Shown: piece by piece, positions 1 to 39,056 of the stretch
How the letters are laid out: every line of letters starts with the position of its first letter
How positions within the stretch are numbered: position 1 is the stretch's first letter
Origin: Alphaproteobacteria bacterium
Lineage (GTDB): Bacteria; Pseudomonadota; Alphaproteobacteria; GCA-2731375
Direction: 5' to 3'
Assembly (NCBI GenBank): GCA_029937535.1
Contig: JAPYPT010000001.1
Span: forward strand, 5,832 to 69,831
DNA length: 64,000 bases
The notes under the pieces: model-generated
Database searches by the model: none
The model's input: only the letters and a program-made list of their open reading frames with translations
Told to the model about the DNA's origin: nothing
Made by a program: the position numbers and the translations under genes

Positions 1-237
1 GTCATGCCCGTGCGGGAAAAATACTCGCAAAACATCGGCGTCTGGCAAACGGAGGCCGAAAACCCGAACGAAGTCTCTCATATGTGGGTTTACGATGACA
101 TGAACCAACGGGCCGAGGTGCGGGCGCAATTTGCCGCCGATCCCGAATGGCAGGCTTTCCTGAAGGAATACGGCGGACATCTCGAAGAGATGCAGAACAT
201 GTTGCTGATGCCGGCATCCTTTTCACCACGAAAATAG
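1..237 (+). CDS. NIPSNAP family protein (C-terminal part; 5' end lies outside the window)
   Basis: Frame-1 ORF ending at 237. Translation ...GVWQTEAENPNEVSHMWVYDDMNQRAEVRAQFAADPEWQAF... matches the conserved C-terminal block of the NIPSNAP/Dabb-like family. Confidence 0.5.
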   Translation, partial: VMPVREKYSQNIGVWQTEAENPNEVSHMWVYDDMNQRAEVRAQFAADPEWQAFLKEYGGHLEEMQNMLLMPASFSPRK

Positions 238-244
238 GCGTACC

Positions 245-1168
245 ATGACTGAATTTAAAGAGATCACCACCGGCCTGATGTTCCCCGAGGGACCCATCGC
301 CATGCCCGACGGCTCCGTCATCCTGGTGGAGATCGAACGCCAGACCCTGACCCGGGTGCACCCCGATGGGCGTCAGGAGATCATCGCAAAAATCGGCGGC
401 GGCCCCAACGGCGCGGCCATGGGGCCGGACGGCAAGGTCTATATCTGCAACAACGGCGGCTTCAACTGGGGCGTCGACGACGGGATCAATCATCCCACCG
501 CCCCGGCGGACGATTACACCTCCGGCCGCATCGAACGGGTCGATATAGAGACCGGAGAGGTCGAGCTGCTGTATGACTCCTGCGATGGCAGGCCGCTCTG
601 CGGACCCAACGATATCGTCTTCGATGCCAAGGGCAATTTCTGGTTCACCGATCTGGGCAAGAGCCGGGACTTCGACATGGACCGTGGCGCCGTCTATTAC
701 GCGCGCTCCGACGGCAGCCTGATCAAACGCGCCGCCGCCCCGCTGATGACCCCCAACGGAATCGGCCTCTCGCCCGATGACAGCCGTGTTTATGCGGCCG
801 AGACCGACCCCCGGCGCCTGATCGCCTGGGATATCGTCGGTGAAGGGGAACTGGCCACCAAACCCTGGCCCGCCGTGGGCTGGGGCGATGTCATCATGGC
901 CCCCGAGGGCGTCAAGCGTTTCGACAGCCTGGCCTTGGAAGCCAACGGCAATATCTGTGTCGCGACGCTATTGACGGGAGGCATCACCGTCGCCGCGCCC
1001 GAGGGCGGCGTCGTGGAATTCATCCCCCTGCCCGACATCATGACCACCAACATTTGTTTTGGCGGCCCGAATTTGCAGACGGCCTACATCACCCTCTCGG
1101 GCGCCGGGCGCCTGATCTCCATGGACTGGCCCCGCCCCGGCCTGCCGCTGCATTTCCTGAACAAGTAG
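245..1168 (+). CDS. SMP-30/gluconolactonase/LRE-like family protein
   Basis: 307-aa ORF. N-terminal 'GLMFPEGPIAMPDGSV' and repeated beta-propeller-like blocks (GPNGAAMGPDGKVY, TPNGIGLSPD) are typical of the SMP-30/gluconolactonase family. Confidence 0.6.
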   Translation: MTEFKEITTGLMFPEGPIAMPDGSVILVEIERQTLTRVHPDGRQEIIAKIGGGPNGAAMGPDGKVYICNNGGFNWGVDDGINHPTAPADDYTSGRIERVDIETGEVELLYDSCDGRPLCGPNDIVFDAKGNFWFTDLGKSRDFDMDRGAVYYARSDGSLIKRAAAPLMTPNGIGLSPDDSRVYAAETDPRRLIAWDIVGEGELATKPWPAVGWGDVIMAPEGVKRFDSLALEANGNICVATLLTGGITVAAPEGGVVEFIPLPDIMTTNICFGGPNLQTAYITLSGAGRLISMDWPRPGLPLHFLNK

Positions 1169-1201
1169 ACCTTTTGAAATTGGCGCGGGGGTAGGCCGCG
1201 G

Positions 1202-1984
1202 ATGCAAAAATGGATGCCGGACGGTTCAGCCACGCGGGCCCGGATTGGCGTGCTGACACCACATTTCGACGCGGTGCCGGAAAGTGAATTTCAGGCTTTG
1301 GCGCCCGCCGGAGTTTCCATTCATGCCGCCCGCGTCCCCTTGGGTATGGTTGGGGCCGATGGAGAGATTATTCCCAACGTCGATGCCGATATTGCACGGG
1401 CATTTGCCGAACAGCCCGCCGTTGACGACGCCGCCGCGCTGCTTTCAGCGGTGGAGCCAAAAGCCATCGTCTTCGCCTTTACCAGCAGCAGTTATATTTT
1501 GGGCGCGGCGGAAGATGAAAAACTAAAGCGCCGTCTGGAGAAACGCACCAATGATATTCCCGTAATCATTCAGTCCATGGCGTTGGTCACCGCCCTCCGG
1601 GCCCTTCATGTCAAGCGGATCGCGCTGATCCATCCGCCATGGTACTCCGATGACCTTGACGCCCTTGGCGCCGCCTATTTTCAAAGCCAGAGCCTGGATG
1701 TTTTGGCGCACGGGCAAGCGAAACTTCGTGAAGACTATGGGGATATGACACCCGAACGGATTTTCGATTGGGCGGTCGAGCACACACCAAATGACGCCGA
1801 GGCGGTGGTTATTGGCGGCGGCGGTTTCCGCGCGAGTGGCGCCATTGCCGCAATAGAAACAAGGCTGGACAGACCGGTATTAAGCGCAAATCAGGCCGCC
1901 TTCTGGCTTGCCTTGAGAACTTCAGGCCTTTCGGACAACCTCGACGGCTATGGGCGTATCTTCGAAGCACAGTTGGACGAATAG
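1202..1984 (+). CDS. Asp/Glu/hydantoin racemase superfamily protein (arylmalonate decarboxylase / maleate isomerase-like)
   Basis: 260-aa ORF. Overall similarity pattern to the maleate-isomerase/arylmalonate-decarboxylase branch of the Asp/Glu/hydantoin racemase fold. A paralog lies at 45017..45739. Confidence 0.45.
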   Translation: MQKWMPDGSATRARIGVLTPHFDAVPESEFQALAPAGVSIHAARVPLGMVGADGEIIPNVDADIARAFAEQPAVDDAAALLSAVEPKAIVFAFTSSSYILGAAEDEKLKRRLEKRTNDIPVIIQSMALVTALRALHVKRIALIHPPWYSDDLDALGAAYFQSQSLDVLAHGQAKLREDYGDMTPERIFDWAVEHTPNDAEAVVIGGGGFRASGAIAAIETRLDRPVLSANQAAFWLALRTSGLSDNLDGYGRIFEAQLDE

Positions 1985-2066
1985 GCTCCGTCCAGACCCA
2001 TGGAGCCCATGCCGCAGACGGCGACGGATTTGATCCGCCCCGTCACGCTGCCGTTCCCTATCCCCG

Positions 2067-2312
2067 CTATTCCATTCCCAGGGCGTGCTTGTAGGTATCG
2101 ATCAGGGCTTCCAGCTCCTGCTGGTCGGCGCTGTCCATTTTGCGCAGCTTGATAATCTGGCGCATCACCTTGGGGTCGAAACCAACCGACTTGGACTCGG
2201 CGTAGACCTCGCGGACGTCCGATGCCAGGGCCGCCTTCTCTTCCTCCAAGCGCTCGATCCGCTCGATAAACTGCCGCAACCGATCCGCCGCGATACCGCC
2301 TACTTCAACCAT
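2067..2312 (-). CDS. DUF2312 (UPF0335) family small protein
   Basis: 81-aa ORF 'MVEVGGIAADRLRQFIERIERLEEEKAALASDVREVYAESKSVGFD...'. This is a conserved alphaproteobacterial UPF0335 signature. Confidence 0.55.
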   Translation of the reverse strand: MVEVGGIAADRLRQFIERIERLEEEKAALASDVREVYAESKSVGFDPKVMRQIIKLRKMDSADQQELEALIDTYKHALGME

Positions 2313-2392
2313 GCAAAACTGCTCCCTAAATCAGATATTTTTGTTGAACCGCGCGGACCATAAACAAGCCCCGTCACGGACGCAATGAAAGC

Positions 2393-3679
2393 CTACTCCA
2401 CCGCCCCCCCGGCCGCTGTCGCATGGGGATTTCGCGGGTCCTGGGTCCAGTTCATATAGGGTTTGCCGTTGTCCACCGGGACCATTTCAATGCAGTTCTC
2501 CACTGGACAGACATGGGCGCACAAATTGCAGCCGACGCATTCGGCATCGATGGTGTCGAATATACGCGCCGGTCCCGTGCCACTGACCGATATGGCCTGA
2601 TGGGCGGTATCTTCACAGGCGATGTGACAGAGACCACACTTGATGCATTTGTCCTGATCGATGCGGGCCACCAATTCGGCGTTGATGTTCAAATCCTGCC
2701 AATCCACGAAATTCGGAATGGCCGCGCCGTGGAAATCGGAGATGCGGCCATAACCCTTGCCGTCCATCCAATTGTTCAGGCCATCGATCATGTCATCGAT
2801 GATCTTGAAACCATAGTGCATGACCCCGGTGCAGACCTGGACGCCGTCCGATCCCAGAGTGATGAATTCCGCCGCATCGCGCCAGGTCTCTATGCCGCCA
2901 ATGCCGGAAATCGCCATGCCGGCGCATTCCGGATCGCGGGCGATCTGGGCCACCAGATTGAGCGCGATAGGTTTCACCGCCGGGCCGCAATAGCCGCCAT
3001 GGCTGCCCTTGCCATCCACGGTAGGTGTTGGCGCCATGAGGTCGAGATCAACCGAAATGATCGAATTCACCGTGTTGATCAGCGCCACCGCATCGGCCCC
3101 GCCAGCCTTGGCCGCCCGCGCCGGGGCCAGGATGTTGGTGACGTTGGGGGTCAATTTCACGAACACCGGCATGCGGGTCATGGATTTGCACCAGCGGGTG
3201 ACCATTTCGACATATTCGGGCACCTGACCCACGGCGGCGCCCATGCCGCGTTCCGACATGCCGTGGGGACAGCCGAAGTTCAACTCCACGCCATCGGCGC
3301 CCGTGTCCTCCACCGCGCCGAGGATCTTCTTCCACGGCGCCTCCTCGCACGGCACCATGAGGGAAACCAGCACCGCCCGGTCCGGCCAGTCCCGCTTAAT
3401 TTGTTTGATCTCGGCCAGGTTCACGTCCAGGGGCCGGTCGGTAATCAACTCAATATTGTTGAAGCCCACCATGCGCTGGCCATTGACGGCCACCGCGCCA
3501 TAGCGGGAGGTGGTGTTGACGATGGGCGGGTCTTCGCCAAGGGTTTTCCAGACCACGCCGCCCCAACCCGCCTTGAAGGCGCGTTCGACATTGTAGGCTT
3601 TGTCCGTGGGCGGGGCGGAGGCGAGCCAGAACGGGTTCGGCGATTTGACGCCGGCGAAATCGCAACGCAGATCAGCCAT
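2393..3679 (-). CDS. preA: NAD-dependent dihydropyrimidine dehydrogenase subunit PreA (dihydroorotate-dehydrogenase-like TIM barrel plus 2x[4Fe-4S] ferredoxin tail)
   Basis: 428-aa ORF with the FMN/DHODH-like core and a C-terminal CIKCGLCHIACEDTAH...CVGCNLCAHVCPV ferredoxin motif. GGGGAG Shine-Dalgarno lies 9 nt upstream. Stop of the upstream preT lies 5 nt before the ATG. Confidence 0.8.
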   Translation of the reverse strand: MADLRCDFAGVKSPNPFWLASAPPTDKAYNVERAFKAGWGGVVWKTLGEDPPIVNTTSRYGAVAVNGQRMVGFNNIELITDRPLDVNLAEIKQIKRDWPDRAVLVSLMVPCEEAPWKKILGAVEDTGADGVELNFGCPHGMSERGMGAAVGQVPEYVEMVTRWCKSMTRMPVFVKLTPNVTNILAPARAAKAGGADAVALINTVNSIISVDLDLMAPTPTVDGKGSHGGYCGPAVKPIALNLVAQIARDPECAGMAISGIGGIETWRDAAEFITLGSDGVQVCTGVMHYGFKIIDDMIDGLNNWMDGKGYGRISDFHGAAIPNFVDWQDLNINAELVARIDQDKCIKCGLCHIACEDTAHQAISVSGTGPARIFDTIDAECVGCNLCAHVCPVENCIEMVPVDNGKPYMNWTQDPRNPHATAAGGAVE

Positions 3680-3683
3680 CTCT

Positions 3684-5039
3684 CTAGCTCCCCATATTCT
3701 TTAAATAATCGGCAATGGCCCCGGCCGCGACCTTGCCATCCTGCACCGCCTGCACCGTCAGGTCCTCGCCGGCCACGCAATCACCGCCCGCCCACACATC
3801 GGACAGGGAGGTCCGTCCGCTTTCATCCACGGCGATACGGCCAGCCGTCAGATCCGGGCCGTCCGCCGCCAGAGGCACGAAGGACTGGCCCACCGCCTTG
3901 AAGACCATGTCGCAGGGCATGGCCTGTTCGCCGCCCGTATCCACCAACGCGCCGTCCGCCGCCAGTTCAACGCCTTGGAACACGGCGGCCCGAACGCCGC
4001 CCTCGCCCTCCAGCCGCACGGGCCGCAACCAATGTTTGATCCGCACGCCATTGGTTTGGGCGAAGGCCTGTTCGTGTCCCGTGGCGCCCATTTGTTCCGG
4101 TCCGCGCCGGTAGACCATGGTCACGTCCTCGGCGCCCAGGCGTTTGGTTTGCACGGCAATATCGATGGCCGTGTTGCCGCCGCCAATGACCACAATGCGG
4201 CGGCCCACGGGCAGGGTGGTCAGATCATCGGCCTGCCGCAAGTCCGCAATGTAGTCGACGGCATTATGAACGCCGTCCAGTTCAGCGCCCGGCACATCGA
4301 GAGCCCGCACGCCGCCCTGCCCCAGGCCCAGGAACACGGCGTCAAAATCGTTGCGCAATTGCGCCAGGGTTAAGTCCCGGCCCAGGGCCTGGCCATAACG
4401 CATTTCGATACCGCCGATCGCGGTGATGAACGCAACTTCGTCCTGGGCAAAGTCGTCGGGCACTTTATAGGCGGCGATGCCGTATTCGTTCAGGCCGCCG
4501 GGTTTGGCGCGCCCCTCGAACACCGTAACGCTCGCGCCTTGGCGGGCCAGGGCATGGGCGCAGGCCAGGCCCGCCGGTCCCGCCCCCACCACGGCAACCG
4601 AACGGCCGGTATCGTCCGCGCGGTTGAAGGGATGCGGTCCCCCCCCGCCCAGATGATCGGTGGCGTGACGTTGCAACAAGCCAATTTCGACGGGGCGGTC
4701 GCCAACACCATTGCGCACGCAATCACCCTGGCAAAGAATTTCCGTCGGGCAGACGCGGGCGCAACTGCCCCCCATGATATTCTCTTCCAGGATGGTCCTG
4801 GCGGCGCCGGTGAGATTGCCCGTGGCGATAGCGCGGATAAATCCGGGGATATCAATGCCCGTGGGGCAGGCCCCGATACAGGGCGCATCGTAACAAAAAT
4901 AACAACGGCTGGCCTCGACCGCGGCGCCGGCCGCATCGAAGGGCCGATGCACGTCGGCAAAATTTTCGGCCAGCACCGCGCCGTTCAATCGCCCGGCCTG
5001 GATATCCGCCCCGTCCGTCATTCCAACCCCGCTCAACAA
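3684..5039 (-). CDS. preT: dihydropyrimidine dehydrogenase subunit PreT (glutamate-synthase small-subunit-like, FAD/NAD-binding)
   Basis: 451-aa ORF. N-terminal CYFCYDAPCIGACP Fe-S motif and two GxGxxG nucleotide-binding motifs (VAVVGAGPAGLACA; IVVIGGGNTAIDIA). Operonic with preA. Confidence 0.8.
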   Translation of the reverse strand: MLSGVGMTDGADIQAGRLNGAVLAENFADVHRPFDAAGAAVEASRCYFCYDAPCIGACPTGIDIPGFIRAIATGNLTGAARTILEENIMGGSCARVCPTEILCQGDCVRNGVGDRPVEIGLLQRHATDHLGGGGPHPFNRADDTGRSVAVVGAGPAGLACAHALARQGASVTVFEGRAKPGGLNEYGIAAYKVPDDFAQDEVAFITAIGGIEMRYGQALGRDLTLAQLRNDFDAVFLGLGQGGVRALDVPGAELDGVHNAVDYIADLRQADDLTTLPVGRRIVVIGGGNTAIDIAVQTKRLGAEDVTMVYRRGPEQMGATGHEQAFAQTNGVRIKHWLRPVRLEGEGGVRAAVFQGVELAADGALVDTGGEQAMPCDMVFKAVGQSFVPLAADGPDLTAGRIAVDESGRTSLSDVWAGGDCVAGEDLTVQAVQDGKVAAGAIADYLKNMGS

Positions 5040-5092
5040 TTTGTTCGATGGGTGAAAGTGTAACGAAAAGCGCCGGACTTTAGGTTGTTTTT

Positions 5093-5716
5093 TTAGGCTT
5101 CTTTTTTCCGGCCGATCCTGGGCTCCTCACCCTTGACCAGACGCCGGATGTTCTGGTGATGGCGGACGAAAACCAGCACCGCCATGAAGGCCGCCAGTTC
5201 CATGATTTGCCAATTGCCAAGCCAATAGGCATAGCCTGGACCCGCCAGGGCAGCGATCAGGGTGGCGAGAGAGGAAAACCGCAGCAGGCCAGCGACGGCC
5301 AACCAGGTCAGACAACACAACAGGCCCGCCGGCCAGTTAATCGCCAGCATGACGCCCAGGTAGGTCGCCATGCCCTTGCCGCCCTTGAATTTCAGCCAGA
5401 CCGGAAACAAATGGCCGATGAAGGCGCCGCCGCCCGCCAGGACAGCCGTGTCGGGCCCATACATATTCGCCAGCAATACCGCCGCCGCGCCCTTGCCGCC
5501 GTCCAGTATCAGGGTCAGGGCGGCCAGGCCTTTATTGCCCGTGCGCAGCACGTTGGTGGCGCCGATATTGCCCGAACCAATGGCGCGCACGTCGCCCAGG
5601 CCCGCCAAGCGGGTCAGCACCAGGCCGAAGGGGATGGAGCCCAGAAGATAGCCAAAGGCCGCCGCCGCCCAAAACGGCCAGATATAGGTTAAATCACCCA
5701 ATGGTGTCGGCATCAA
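5093..5716 (-). CDS. plsY: glycerol-3-phosphate acyltransferase PlsY
   Basis: 207-aa membrane ORF '[55 protein letters not shown]' is the PlsY signature. Overlaps the pyrC-like stop by 4 nt. Confidence 0.8.
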
Positions 5717-36410: not shown

Positions 36411-37298
36411 ATGACGACAACCGGCATTTGGCAGGCGGTGGTGATCGTGCCGCCGCCGCTGGCCCCGGCCTTCGAGGAGGCATTGGAAGCGGCATCGGAG
36501 GCGGGGGCACTGGCTTGTTCCAGATTTGAAACCACCCCCGGCGGGCCCTGGTCGATCCAGGTGCTGTTGCAAGGACCGGTGGATAAAAAGGCGCTCGAGA
36601 CCCGCCTTGCCCTGGCCGCCGCCGCCCTGGACGTGCCGGCGCCGATCCTCAGTCTGAGCCCGGTTCCGGAACAGGATTGGGTTACCGCCTCGTACCGGGC
36701 CCAGCCGCCCGTTCAGGCGGGACGTTTTTTTGTCCATGGCGCCCATGACCGGGGCACGGCGCCGGGTGGCGCCATCACCCTGGAAGTGGACGCCGGCCGC
36801 GCCTTCGGCAATGGCCGCCATGAAACCACATATGGCTGTCTGCTAGCGCTCGATCACCTTGCCAAGACACGACGGTATCGCCAGCCCCTGGATCTGGGCT
36901 GCGGCGCCGGGGTGCTAGCCCTGGCCATGGCGCGGCTTTGGCGCGTGCCCGTCGTTGCCACCGACATCGATCCCTGGGCCGTCGCCGTGGCCCGCGATAA
37001 CGCCCGGCGCAATCATCTTCACCCCTGGGTCCGGCCCTTGCTGTCCGACGGCTTCGCCCATCCCAATCTTGCTGCCGGCGCGCCCTATGACCTGATCATG
37101 GCCAACATTCTGGCCCGCCCGCTGCAACGCCTGGCCCCGGCCATCGCCCAGCACCTGGCGCCAGGCGGCCGGGTGGTGCTGTCGGGTTTGCTGGCAAAAC
37201 AGGACGCCCAGGTCCGCGCCGCCTATATGGCTCAAGGCCTTTATCTGCGTCGGCGCAGGCTCTTGGGCGAATGGCTGACCTTGGAATTGACCAGGTGA
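36411..37298 (+). CDS. prmA: ribosomal protein L11 methyltransferase
   Basis: LDLGCGAGVLALA SAM-binding motif I and typical PrmA length. ATG at 36411 overlaps the uvrD stop region. Confidence 0.75.
   Translation: MTTTGIWQAVVIVPPPLAPAFEEALEAASEAGALACSRFETTPGGPWSIQVLLQGPVDKKALETRLALAAAALDVPAPILSLSPVPEQDWVTASYRAQPPVQAGRFFVHGAHDRGTAPGGAITLEVDAGRAFGNGRHETTYGCLLALDHLAKTRRYRQPLDLGCGAGVLALAMARLWRVPVVATDIDPWAVAVARDNARRNHLHPWVRPLLSDGFAHPNLAAGAPYDLIMANILARPLQRLAPAIAQHLAPGGRVVLSGLLAKQDAQVRAAYMAQGLYLRRRRLLGEWLTLELTR
37197..37298. repeat. direct repeat copy A (last ~33 codons of prmA)
   Basis: About 90% identical to 38122-38222. Copy A is the in-gene prmA terminus. Confidence 0.6.
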
Positions 37299-37331
37299 AC
37301 CAGCCGCCGAAAGCAATCCTGCAGCGGTGAG

Positions 37332-37889
37332 TTGGGATCGAAACTGGCCTATAGTAGGGTAGCGTCCCCTTTGTTTCTGCATAAAGGACATCACAACAAA
37401 AGGACCCAAAAATTGTCTGACGACGAGAAAGCAACACCGGTTGGCTTGTTCAATTACGCTCATACGTATGCAGCATCTGCTGCTGCATTATCAGCCGCGG
37501 AAGTTAAGGCGACTCACTGGAACGCGCCAGTGTATTTTCTCTACTTCCATGCAATCGAGCTGTATCTAAAAGCATTTCTATTAGCCCAAGGTGTCACTCT
37601 TGGTGAGCTGAAGGGGAAGTACGTCCACAGCATACGCAAGCTCGCTGAGAAGGCTGAGGAGCATCGGCTTGATATCATGGCTCAGTATAAAGGGGCAATC
37701 GAGCTCATAGACAAGACCGACAACGTGATCTCATCCCGATACCTCCGTGTGGGGGCCCATACGCGGTTGCCCTTCTCTGTCTTCGACAACTTCTGCCGGT
37801 CCCTCCATCAGCAGATCGAGCCCACGGTCTATGACCCAACCGGCATCACGCGCCGTCCCGAGCTATGGCCAAAGCCTCCACTTCTTTGA
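37332..37889 (+). CDS. hypothetical protein in low-GC insertion (possible HEPN-like Rx4-6H motif)
   Basis: 185-aa ORF with markedly lower GC than its surroundings. Contains 'HAIELYLKAFLLAQG' and 'SRYLRVGAHTR' (R-x6-H). No confident family assignment. Confidence 0.35.
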   Translation: MGSKLAYSRVASPLFLHKGHHNKRTQKLSDDEKATPVGLFNYAHTYAASAAALSAAEVKATHWNAPVYFLYFHAIELYLKAFLLAQGVTLGELKGKYVHSIRKLAEKAEEHRLDIMAQYKGAIELIDKTDNVISSRYLRVGAHTRLPFSVFDNFCRSLHQQIEPTVYDPTGITRRPELWPKPPLL

Positions 37890-38099
37890 AAACTACGAAA
37901 TTAACCCCAGATTTAAGGGGACGCTACCCTTCCAGGTTTTCCAGGTTTAAGGGGACGCTGGGTCTATTGATAAAGTCGCTATTTCTGGTCGTTCGAGTAT
38001 GCAGACCGGATTTCGGCAAAATGTGGTAGGGATAAATGGAGGGACATAATGATAAAGGGGGCGCTACCTTTTTAAAAAAAAGGACGCTACCCTTATCAG
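37353..38099. mobile_element. ~750-bp low-GC insertion bounded by inverted copies of a 16-nt motif (AAGGGGACGCTACCCT) with 3 further subterminal copies; no transposase or integrase
   Basis: Left end 37356-37371 is an inverted copy. Further copies lie at 37913, 37948, 38050 and 38081 (direct copies; 37948 and 38050 are partial or variant). The whole lies between the duplicated prmA tails. Confidence 0.35.
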
Positions 38100-38121
38100 G
38101 TCGCTATTGGCCAGTCGGCGA

Positions 38122-38222
38122 ACCAGGACGCCCAGGTCCGCGCCGCCTACCGGGCCCAAGGCCTCTATCTGCGTCGGCGCGGGCGCTGGGGCGAATGGCT
38201 GACCTTGGAGTTGTCCAGGTAA
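38122..38222. repeat. direct repeat copy B (diverged duplicate of prmA 3' end, frame and stop preserved)
   Basis: Encodes QDAQVRAAYRAQGLYLRRRGRWGEWLTLELSR* versus the prmA end KQDAQVRAAYMAQGLYLRRRRLLGEWLTLELTR*. Confidence 0.6.
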
Positions 38223-38243
38223 GCCATTCGCCCGGCTCAACGC

Positions 38244-39056
38244 CTAGAGTGGTGAGTTCTTGTCGAAATTGGGCTCGCGTTTTTCCAGGAACGAGGCTAG
38301 GCCTTCTTTTGCTTCCGGGCCCTTGAAGCCGAGCATTTCGAGGGCCAGGGAATTCTCGAACGTGGGCATGGCCATCCGGTACCAATTGTTCAGGGCCAGC
38401 TTGGTCCAGCGAATGGCGCTGGGCGCGCCATTGACGAGGGTTATGGCGATCGCTTCCGACTTGGCGGTCAATTCATCATCTTCCGTACACAGGGAAAACA
38501 ACCCCATGCGCTCGGCCTCTTCGCCGAATACAGGTTCGTTGGTCAGCAGATGGTATTTGGCCTTGGCCATGCCGGCCAGGATGACCCAGTTGATGCAGGC
38601 CACATCTCCGGCGGCCACGCCCAGGCGCACATGGCCGTCGAGCACACGGGCGGATTTGGCGATGATCGAGATATCGGCCAGAAGTGCCGCCACCAGGCCC
38701 GCGCCCACGGCGACGCCGTTGACGGCGGAAATGATCGGCTTGGAACAATTGATGATGTTGTAGACCAGGTCGCGGGCCTCTTTCCAGGCGCCGATCGTAT
38801 CGTTCCAGTTCTCGATATTGTTCTGGATCATGCTGAAGTCGCCGCCCGAGGAGAACGCCTTGCCCTTGGCGGCCAGAATGACGCAGCTGATATCCGGGTC
38901 CTCGTCGATGTCCCGCCAAATATACGTCAATTGTCGGTGACCTTGGGAATCCAGTGAATTATAGGTCTCTGGCTTATTGAAGGTGATGCGCAGAACGCGC
39001 TCGCTGGGGCTGTCATATTCAAAGGCGGGAAATTTCTCTGCGTAACGTTCAATCAT
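38244..39056 (-). CDS. enoyl-CoA hydratase/isomerase (crotonase) family protein
   Basis: ATG at 39056 (MIERYAEKFPAFEYD...). Crotonase-fold motif pattern (…AAKGKAFSSGGDF…). Confidence 0.7.
   Translation of the reverse strand: MIERYAEKFPAFEYDSPSERVLRITFNKPETYNSLDSQGHRQLTYIWRDIDEDPDISCVILAAKGKAFSSGGDFSMIQNNIENWNDTIGAWKEARDLVYNIINCSKPIISAVNGVAVGAGLVAALLADISIIAKSARVLDGHVRLGVAAGDVACINWVILAGMAKAKYHLLTNEPVFGEEAERMGLFSLCTEDDELTAKSEAIAITLVNGAPSAIRWTKLALNNWYRMAMPTFENSLALEMLGFKGPEAKEGLASFLEKREPNFDKNSPL

Follow-up and report, generated by a model that had tools for sequence, protein, structure and literature searches.

A small islet between two copies of the prmA/enoyl-CoA hydratase junction in an alphaproteobacterial genome

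In the integration of ICESt1 at fda and of SGI1 at trmE, the 3' end of the target gene is duplicated and the functional end comes to lie on the element side; the repeats of this type are short and identical (about 18-27 bp), and the element carries its own integrase. The islet described in this work was found in a 64,000-nucleotide stretch of DNA from an Alphaproteobacteria bacterium (GTDB GCA-2731375; assembly GCA_029937535.1, contig JAPYPT010000001.1, positions 5,832 to 69,831, hereafter the window, in whose own numbering positions are given). It also lies between two copies of a gene 3' end, that of prmA, and differs from the ICESt1/SGI1 type both in its repeats and in the integrase.

Two kinds of remnant are close to this situation. 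Cis-mobilizable elements (CIMEs) are those in which the integration and transfer genes have been lost and attL and attR kept (Pavlovic et al. 2004, reviewed in PMC5704250), and the partial tRNAs of tycheposon islands are read as traces of older integrations (10.1101/2020.12.28.424599). A third system concerns Y1 transposases, since the TnpA-Y1 subclass 2.1 (PMC6006769) corresponds to the group-1 RAYTs (PMC5581495) and to the TIRYTs of Di Nocera et al. (PMC3733652); the terminal inverted repeats (TIRs) flanking TIRYT genes have GGGGWSAS in common and are found as dimers or in clusters (PMC3733652). The feature in the window is most likely a CIME-like remnant plus TIRYT-associated repeats, both of kinds already known. 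It is less usual in that the duplication is long and diverged and keeps two convergent gene ends, and in that the target is prmA.

Insertion and duplication at the prmA/ECH junction

The features of the junction are the following:

36411-37298, plus strand: prmA, ribosomal protein L11 methyltransferase, 295 aa (Pfam PrmA, E 1e-51; 295-aa homologues; gene calls in contigs L002 and L003).
37193-37350, plus strand: left junction copy, in which the functional 3' end of prmA with its stop is followed by the spacer and by a dead 3' fragment of the enoyl-CoA hydratase/isomerase (ECH) gene (repeat search, alignments).
37351-38116, no strand: insert of 766 bp with low GC, the minimum of the window (base composition; empty sites in contigs L007-L011).
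38117-38275, plus strand: right junction copy, consisting of a displaced, non-functional prmA 3' fragment with frame and stop intact, spacer and the functional ECH 3' end.
38189-38233, no strand: strong stem-loop over the displaced prmA stop (17-nt arms, 94% complementary; folding energy).
38244-39056, minus strand: ECH, 270 aa, convergent with prmA (Pfam ECH_1, E 3e-42; 88-94% amino acid identity to syntenic genes in relatives).

The 766-bp segment is an insertion into the prmA/ECH junction. A search for PrmA homologues provided five contigs from three related lineages (L007/L008, L009/L010 and L011) for an empty-site comparison, and in all five the order UvrD-like helicase, prmA, convergent ECH and oligopeptide ABC transporter is kept, with the stop codons of prmA and ECH only 51-121 bp apart, a spacing from which the insertion follows. 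In addition, contigs from three separate sequencing runs (L002, L003 and L015) match the window at 100%, with L002 covering positions 37100-38350 and therefore both junctions, so that an assembly artefact is excluded. The insert is present in all three same-species assemblies.

The first-pass annotation of this DNA, made by a model from the sequence alone, had described a low-GC insert with a single open reading frame (ORF) and with neither integrase nor transposase, and had proposed comparing the same junction in related genomes. The empty sites agree with its reading, and so does the composition of the segment, whose GC content of 0.50, compared with 0.60 for the window, lies below that of all 633 sampled 766-bp windows. 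One ORF is credible, the HEPN gene discussed below, which is also the only ORF of the insert with homologues, and no recombinase domain, integrase or transposase was found among the ORFs of the insert. No tRNA or tmRNA was detected in the window.

The duplication around the insert is longer than it had first appeared. The repeat search paired positions 37193-37308 with 38117-38232 (116 nt, 86% identity) and, past a one-base indel, 37318-37350 with 38243-38275 (33 nt, 73%), so that the whole junction duplication, 37193-37350 versus 38117-38275, measures approximately 158 bp at about 80% identity. It is made up of the prmA 3' end, represented in the left copy by the last 35 codons or so, a spacer of 22 bp and, from the convergent ECH gene, the terminal ~10 codons. 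Within it, the last 33 codons of prmA and the stop (37197-37298 versus 38121-38222) agree at 90 of 102 bases (88%), and both copies can be translated in frame up to the stop codon, ending in GEWLTLELTR on the left and in GEWLTLELSR on the right. The claim that the duplication rebuilds the prmA C-terminus, with frame and stop preserved, was therefore borne out; the length of about 105 nt given with it fell short, since the ECH tail also belongs to the repeat. In the left copy, the ECH fragment has lost its stop (CTGCAG versus CTAGAG). The 12 coding differences between the two prmA copies are split 3/4/5 over the codon positions, an even spread which is expected if one copy drifts neutrally.

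The stem-loop at the prmA stop folds with -21.2 kcal/mol (z -7.9) in the right copy, compared with -8.8 (z -2.3) in the left one, and probably represents the native terminator shared by prmA and ECH, acting in both directions; in the left copy it has decayed. An Rfam search of positions 37000-38500 yielded a sub-threshold miRNA match on this hairpin only, and the scan for promoters and terminators remained at chance level. A supposed third, decayed prmA copy at 37960-38054 was rejected as not significant.

The HEPN-fold gene and the location of its relatives

The islet contains a single gene:

37413-37889, plus strand: 158-aa HEPN-fold protein, TTG start (121 homologues; weak Pfam HEPN match; AlphaFold model and fold match to 4nqf).

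The start at TTG 37413 is backed by the lengths of the homologues (about 150-166 aa) and by the gene call in L015, the 121 homologues having been collected at E values up to 0.001. Searches of the 158-aa ORF in NCBIfam and PHROGs gave no match, PADLOC returned a single weak one (PDC-S19), and Pfam HEPN (PF05168) scored 16.8 bits, below its gathering threshold of 22. Judging from its structural model, the protein has a HEPN fold: the AlphaFold (AF2) prediction, computed from 32 sequences, is all-helical (pLDDT 88, pTM 0.86), its best Foldseek match in the PDB is the HEPN domain 4nqf (TM 0.61-0.66), and the next fold matches are sacsin HEPN, HEPN-MNT and Csm6. The likeness to described HEPN proteins (4nqf, the HEPN-MNT toxins, Csm6) thus consists of the all-helical fold, the weak Pfam match and the name HEPN given to the homologues in the source databases. 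The differences are that the Pfam score is sub-threshold, that family members do not share a conserved His in the Rx4-6H motif and that no MNT or antitoxin partner gene is present in the unit. Among 32 aligned members, residues H35, H46, E49, K53, H72, R109 and G114 are invariant; the window protein does possess an R-x6-H (RYLRVGAH), whose R109 belongs to the invariant set and whose His is variable in the same alignment. Since the canonical His is not a family feature, the RNase-type function in defence or toxicity which the protein presumably has is assigned by analogy.

Relatives of the gene in other Alphaproteobacteria were found in small units at tRNA genes with a flanking direct repeat, among them the following:

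L136, Halocynthiibacter: tRNA-Thr(TGT); direct repeat of 48 nt, 100%; unit of 1017 bp; HEPN only.
L165, metagenome: tRNA-Thr(TGT); direct repeat of 58 nt, 96.6%; unit of 951 bp; HEPN only.
L183, metagenome: tRNA-Thr(CGT); direct repeat of 50 nt, 100%; unit of 1129 bp; HEPN only.
L001, metagenome (76% identical protein): tRNA-Pro(CGG); direct repeat of 34 nt, 97%; unit of 917 bp; HEPN only.
L135, Tabrizicola: tRNA-like 3' half; direct repeat of 50 nt, 98%; unit of 1231 bp; YopX plus HEPN.

Considering the 71 HEPN loci with enough flanking sequence, a flanking repeat of at least 18 nt is direct in 11 and inverted in one. The repeat of L136 starts in the anticodon loop of the tRNA and reaches its 3' end. 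The unit of L135 is part of a larger island, which also holds Fic, relaxase-like, MobC/NikA, AlpA and restriction-modification genes. In L001 a third tRNA fragment farther upstream reveals a tandem array, an arrangement which also occurs in L135. None of the repeat-bounded HEPN units holds a recombinase gene, and no non-coding DNA is shared among the units, in which only the ORF can be aligned.

A possible source of such units is suggested by L221 (Logan contig, 1-5669), where the HEPN homologue is the last gene of a phage-like block with a RusA-like resolvase, YopX and many small ORFs, and an intact tRNA-Thr(TGT) follows 105 bp after it, at the contig end. The simplest reading of these loci is that the HEPN family represents the att-proximal terminal gene of temperate-phage-like integrative elements. 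As the left repeat lies inside a target gene kept by selection, an internal deletion would leave behind the target gene, the HEPN gene and the displaced 3' fragment, and this layout is common to the tRNA loci and to the window, where the target is a protein gene.

Some further observations on the relatives may be recorded. The block of L221 could be the autonomous parent type of the mini-islets. The tRNA-Pro-derived segments of L001 occupy positions 1184-1228 and 2202-2235, with the intact gene at 3119-3195, and delimit a stack of two small units; the HEPN gene occupies one of them and a 105-aa ORF of unknown function the other. In L176 (306-3222), a 114-nt structured repeat is present at 938, 1663 and 3109 and, shortened to 57 nt, at 2487, while a piece of 22 nt lies at 306; the spacing is 620-820 bp. 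A HEPN-family ORF (2017-2448) stands between two of the copies, and the array resembles a cassette array of unknown type.

The hairpin repeat and the closest relative

A short motif is repeated within the insert:

37356-37371, minus strand: exact copy of the motif, AAGGGGACGCTACCCT, inverted (motif search, folding).
37915-37930, plus strand: exact copy, AAGGGGACGCTACCCT (motif search, folding).
37949-37959, plus strand: partial copy of 11 nt, AAGGGGACGCT only (repeat search).
38055-38070, plus strand: copy with two mismatches (motif search).
38078-38093, plus strand: copy with two mismatches (motif search).

With up to three mismatches, the motif gives four matches, a number reached by none of 100 shuffles, where 0.36 are expected, and in the 64-kb window it is confined to the insert. 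The first-pass annotation had noted the inverted and direct copies, which are indeed present, at coordinates that were off by 2-5 bases; its view of them as the ends of the element was not upheld, given that the motif is the hairpin repeat of a widespread family found beside IS200-like Y1 transposase genes and is missing from the other HEPN islets. No Y1 homologue was found in the insert or elsewhere in the 64-kb window. An insertion sequence or miniature inverted-repeat transposable element with terminal inverted repeats does not fit the layout: the inverted copies at 37356 and 38078 lie 5 and 23 bp from the long repeat, and no short target duplication is present.

The wider distribution of the motif was determined by scanning 185,579 species genomes for two motif cores no more than 31 bp apart, which gave at least 119 stretches. 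The scan pattern had a shortened first half, so that some of the matches are random; among the matches listed, 100 of 119 stretches have two or more full 12-mers and 19 have a single one. The hosts of these listed matches are mostly proteobacterial metagenome-assembled genomes (MAGs), together with Planctomycetota, Verrucomicrobiota, Cyanobacteria, Acidobacteriota, Nitrospirota and Myxococcota. Several contigs of the same MAG may bear the motif (at least ~13 in QPIL01 and at least 7 in CAZIUB01), and the matches are often found at contig ends. From at least 290 instances, the consensus AAAGGGGACGCTACCCTTT was obtained, a hairpin with a 6-7-bp stem and a 7-nt loop (AAAGGG-GACGCTA-CCCTTT). Among the matches listed, it was also observed that conservation covers the entire 19-nt hairpin and goes beyond a short core, in Proteobacteria and as far afield as Planctomycetota, Verrucomicrobiota, Cyanobacteria, Acidobacteriota and Nitrospirota. 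Two isolated single matches in IMG/VR, with no further copies, were taken as chance.

The arrays consist of 2-6 direct copies, 17-45 bp apart, often joined by a copy in inverted orientation at a distance of 27-66 bp or about 720-766 bp. In at least 13 loci, the arrangement is that of a motif on the plus strand, a gene of ~228 aa in either orientation and a motif on the minus strand, at a distance of 718-766 bp. The protein belongs to Pfam Y1_Tnp (IS200-like, E 1e-15) and reaches 60.8 bits on NCBIfam REP_Tyr_transpos, where the cut-off is 80; in its length and in the motifs NHVH and Y(V/T)ERNP it agrees with TnpA-Y1 subclass 2.1 (PMC6006769). Moreover, GGGGACGC, within the motif, matches GGGGWSAS at 7 of 8 positions. 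The motif is thus a hairpin repeat associated with TIRYT/group-1 RAYT enzymes and not the integration site of the islet. It is absent from the other HEPN loci, in six of which isolated matches to a 9-mer core look like chance, and none of the other surveyed motif clusters has a long flanking duplication, so that such a duplication is no general trait of the repeat family.

A comparison with the classical REP/REPIN-RAYT systems (groups 2 and 3) shows the same short extragenic hairpins, often as inverted pairs, with a Y1 HuH enzyme. Here, however, GTAG lies within the stem/loop (GGGTAGCG) of a 19-21-nt hairpin instead of forming the 5' foot of a 20-40-nt palindrome, the stem has just 6-7 bp, and the protein stays below the REP_Tyr_transpos cut-off. 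As for the genes next to the arrays, HigB/HigA-like and BrnT toxin-antitoxin genes were observed directly beside them in unrelated genomes (L101:1661-2266, L061:2684-3265, L099:314-907 and L092:714-1004). A cassette rule for genes between outward-facing arrays was considered and abandoned, the contents being mixed (PCMT, KilA-N, BrnT, HigB and a DDE remnant).

The age of the insertion can be approached through L122, a contig of MAG OC6_4000m_MAG_82 and the nearest sampled relative as measured by ECH (93.7% amino acid identity), ABC (92.1%) and UvrD (92.8%), with PrmA at only 69%. An insertion is present at the same place in this genome. The left junction copy stops at the same position of the ECH tail, and two hairpin copies in inverted orientation come next; on the right, the junction is homologous to that of the window, with a more decayed and partly deleted prmA fragment before ECH. 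The cargo comprises a 75-aa ORF, one hairpin copy, a Y1 gene cut to residues 73-222, with the HuH part lost, and two more hairpin copies. No remnant of the HEPN gene was found in L122, nor any remnant of the Y1 gene in the window.

The 22-bp spacer and the stem-loop at the prmA stop are clade-specific and common to both copies in both genomes, and the spacers of the outgroups cannot be aligned with them; the duplication was therefore made from the lineage's own junction. Identity between the window and L122 at four-fold degenerate sites (0.71-0.75) is comparable to the divergence between the two copies in the window, and on this sequence comparison the insertion seems to be old, about as old as the split from L122, and not a recent integration. 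One old event in the common ancestor, followed by turnover of the cargo, is favoured; the alternatives are that integration recurred at this one site or that the copies underwent gene conversion, and the mosaic formed by the two window copies is compatible with gene conversion and with old divergence alike.

Two details of the junctions in these genomes were recorded separately. The stem bears a compensatory AA:TT to GC:GC change, GGGCGAATGG / CCATTCGCCC in the window and GGGCGGCTGG / CCAGCCGCCC in L122 (about 1602-1647), by which a conserved Glu of PrmA becomes Gly in L122. Also, an Arg conserved in the outgroups has been lost from the functional prmA of the window and of L122 (YRAQG to YMAQG or YLAQG; 37224-37229 in the window, about 1553-1558 in L122), and the displaced, non-functional copy of the window (38148-38153) still encodes it.

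Origin of the islet and comparison with known systems

The explanation preferred here, which is given about an even chance of being right, is that the islet is what decay has left of a probably phage-like integrative element; it would have arisen from one Campbell-type crossover and would later have been colonised by hairpin repeats. The analysis demonstrates the insertion, the duplication, the family to which the motif belongs, the HEPN fold and the recurring repeat-bounded HEPN units; the mechanism, the former integrase, the order of events and the function of the protein are what we infer. An element would have joined the prmA/ECH junction by a single reciprocal crossover with a circular DNA carrying the same junction, duplicating about 158 bp or more, such that the left copy completes prmA and the right copy completes ECH; an insert between two target copies, each gene having a full end, is in fact the product expected of such a crossover. 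By analogy with the tRNA-linked units, the likeliest catalyst would be a site-specific recombinase of the now-deleted element, the main alternative being RecA, for which about 160-215 bp of homology would have been available. Deletion would subsequently have removed the recombinase along with everything else of the element but the att-proximal HEPN cargo gene. Hairpin repeats, which are spread by or associated with TIRYT/group-1 RAYT Y1 transposases and occupy extragenic DNA in the manner of REP sequences, may then have settled in the islet, whose DNA is non-essential; a Y1 gene would have come with them and would survive only as the fragment in L122. The proposal in the first-pass annotation of a decayed or non-autonomous integrated islet is kept to this extent, in view of the insertion, the duplication, the lack of an integrase and the presence of the gene family in att-type islets; what had to be given up is the role of the motif as its ends.

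Several points weigh against this explanation. No integrase targeting the prmA 3' end was found, neither the prmA C-terminus nor the HEPN protein has a match in 50,697 records of cultured phages, and IMG/VR gives just two distant HEPN matches. A plasmid collection likewise gave two distant matches. The 158-bp repeat, at ~80-88% identity, is far longer and more diverged than the tRNA-linked repeats of 34-58 nt and 96-100%, and the crossover point could not be mapped from the empty-site relatives, whose PrmA identity is only 75-77%. Furthermore, L122 shares the junctions without a trace of HEPN, as the window does without a trace of Y1, so that HEPN may not be the original cargo, and hairpin copies adjoin both junctions in both genomes, which can be read as element ends.

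This last point belongs to a different origin, through a Y1 transposase (a TIRtron), in which a TIRYT gene and its hairpin arrays came first as functional ends, the duplication arose in that event or by local rearrangement, and HEPN then replaced the transposase. The truncated Y1 gene between the same junctions of L122, the hairpin copies abutting both junctions there and in the window, the arrays flanking Y1 genes in at least 13-16 other loci and their position elsewhere beside small accessory genes, such as those of the HigB and BrnT toxins, all speak for it. Nevertheless, it is judged unlikely. Transposition of the IS200/IS605-type Y1 kind is not known to make a target duplication (for background, PMC6006769), and the window is alone among the surveyed motif clusters in having a long flanking one. 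Its repeats face outward (minus, then plus), the reverse of the plus-gene-minus layout at Y1 genes, and the other HEPN units have att-type tRNA repeats instead of the motif.

Ranked below it, and considered improbable, is a RecA-dependent Campbell integration of a circularised fragment from a close relative, made of the prmA/ECH junction and foreign DNA, with no dedicated recombinase. A repeat of at least 158 bp is long enough for RecA, both copies derive from the junction sequence of the clade itself, and the failure to find an integrase for the prmA site is in keeping with it. However, elsewhere the HEPN family is placed between 34-58-nt tRNA halves starting in the anticodon loop, which is the signature of a tyrosine integrase; moreover, single-crossover integrants with direct repeats are unstable unless fixed, and yet this one would have persisted for about the age of the L122 split.

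That the HEPN unit is still an active non-autonomous element (a mini-CIME or satellite), excising and integrating by means of an integrase supplied in trans, has little to recommend it in our estimation. The same single-gene architecture at five or more target genes and the tandem arrays of L001 and L135 would agree with mobility, but differing targets imply differing attP sites and integrases, so that repeated decay with a terminal gene, as in L221, is simpler; in addition, the repeats of the window are 12-20% diverged and all three same-species assemblies carry the insert.

The idea that the hairpin arrays and the Y1 (TIRYT) enzyme form a cassette-exchange system is a very long shot. It comes from the window and L122, which have the same array-bounded prmA/ECH junctions and wholly different cargo (HEPN in one, the 75-aa ORF and the truncated Y1 gene in the other), and from the toxin genes found next to the arrays of other genomes. 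If true, a domesticated HuH transposase swapping genes between hairpin arrays would be a new route of gene turnover. Finally, the view that the segment was not inserted at all, being either ancestral and lost in relatives or an artefact, can practically be discarded: the sample does hold two lineages with the segment and three without, but a segment with so extreme a GC, a gene of a foreign family and a duplication at its flanks points to gain, three independent assemblies are 100% identical over the junctions, and L122 is an independent MAG.

The locus has some implications beyond this genome. The prmA 3' end is a possible addition to the protein-gene integration sites, and the preservation of two convergent gene ends by one duplication is unusual. 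The HEPN family, recurring as the lone survivor or passenger of ~1-kb att-bounded units, becomes a candidate for a retained defence or toxin gene. For annotation, caution is advisable, since inverted and subterminal repeats in an islet may belong to an unrelated group-1 RAYT/TIRYT system. Also, the 19-nt hairpin, found across many phyla, offers a concrete substrate for the study of the poorly understood TIRYT enzymes.

Compared with the known systems, the likeness to CIMEs lies in the acquired DNA, the direct repeats including the 3' end of the target gene, the absence of integrase and transfer genes, the target kept intact through the element-side copy and the tandem arrays seen in the related loci L001 and L135. 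The islet differs in its size of ~0.77 kb with one gene and in a repeat of ~158 bp (80-88%) which spans two convergent gene ends, in place of a short identical core; no parent integrative and conjugative element, integrative and mobilizable element or phage is known for the prmA site. The remnants in tycheposon islands are matched by the HEPN relatives, whose units of 0.9-1.2 kb have a tRNA on one side and part of a second copy of that tRNA's 3' half on the other and are sometimes stacked, the window being different in that the copy is at a protein-coding gene, that the hosts are Alphaproteobacteria and that tycheposon hallmark genes are missing. With respect to TIRtrons and TIRYTs, the window has no Y1 gene and its copies face outward around the HEPN gene. 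The motif itself behaves elsewhere as described for that system, being inverted around ~228-aa Y1_Tnp genes, in dimers or clusters and at several sites per genome, to which the direct arrays of 2-6 copies and the conservation of a 19-nt hairpin across phyla add traits not described in the published accounts compared.

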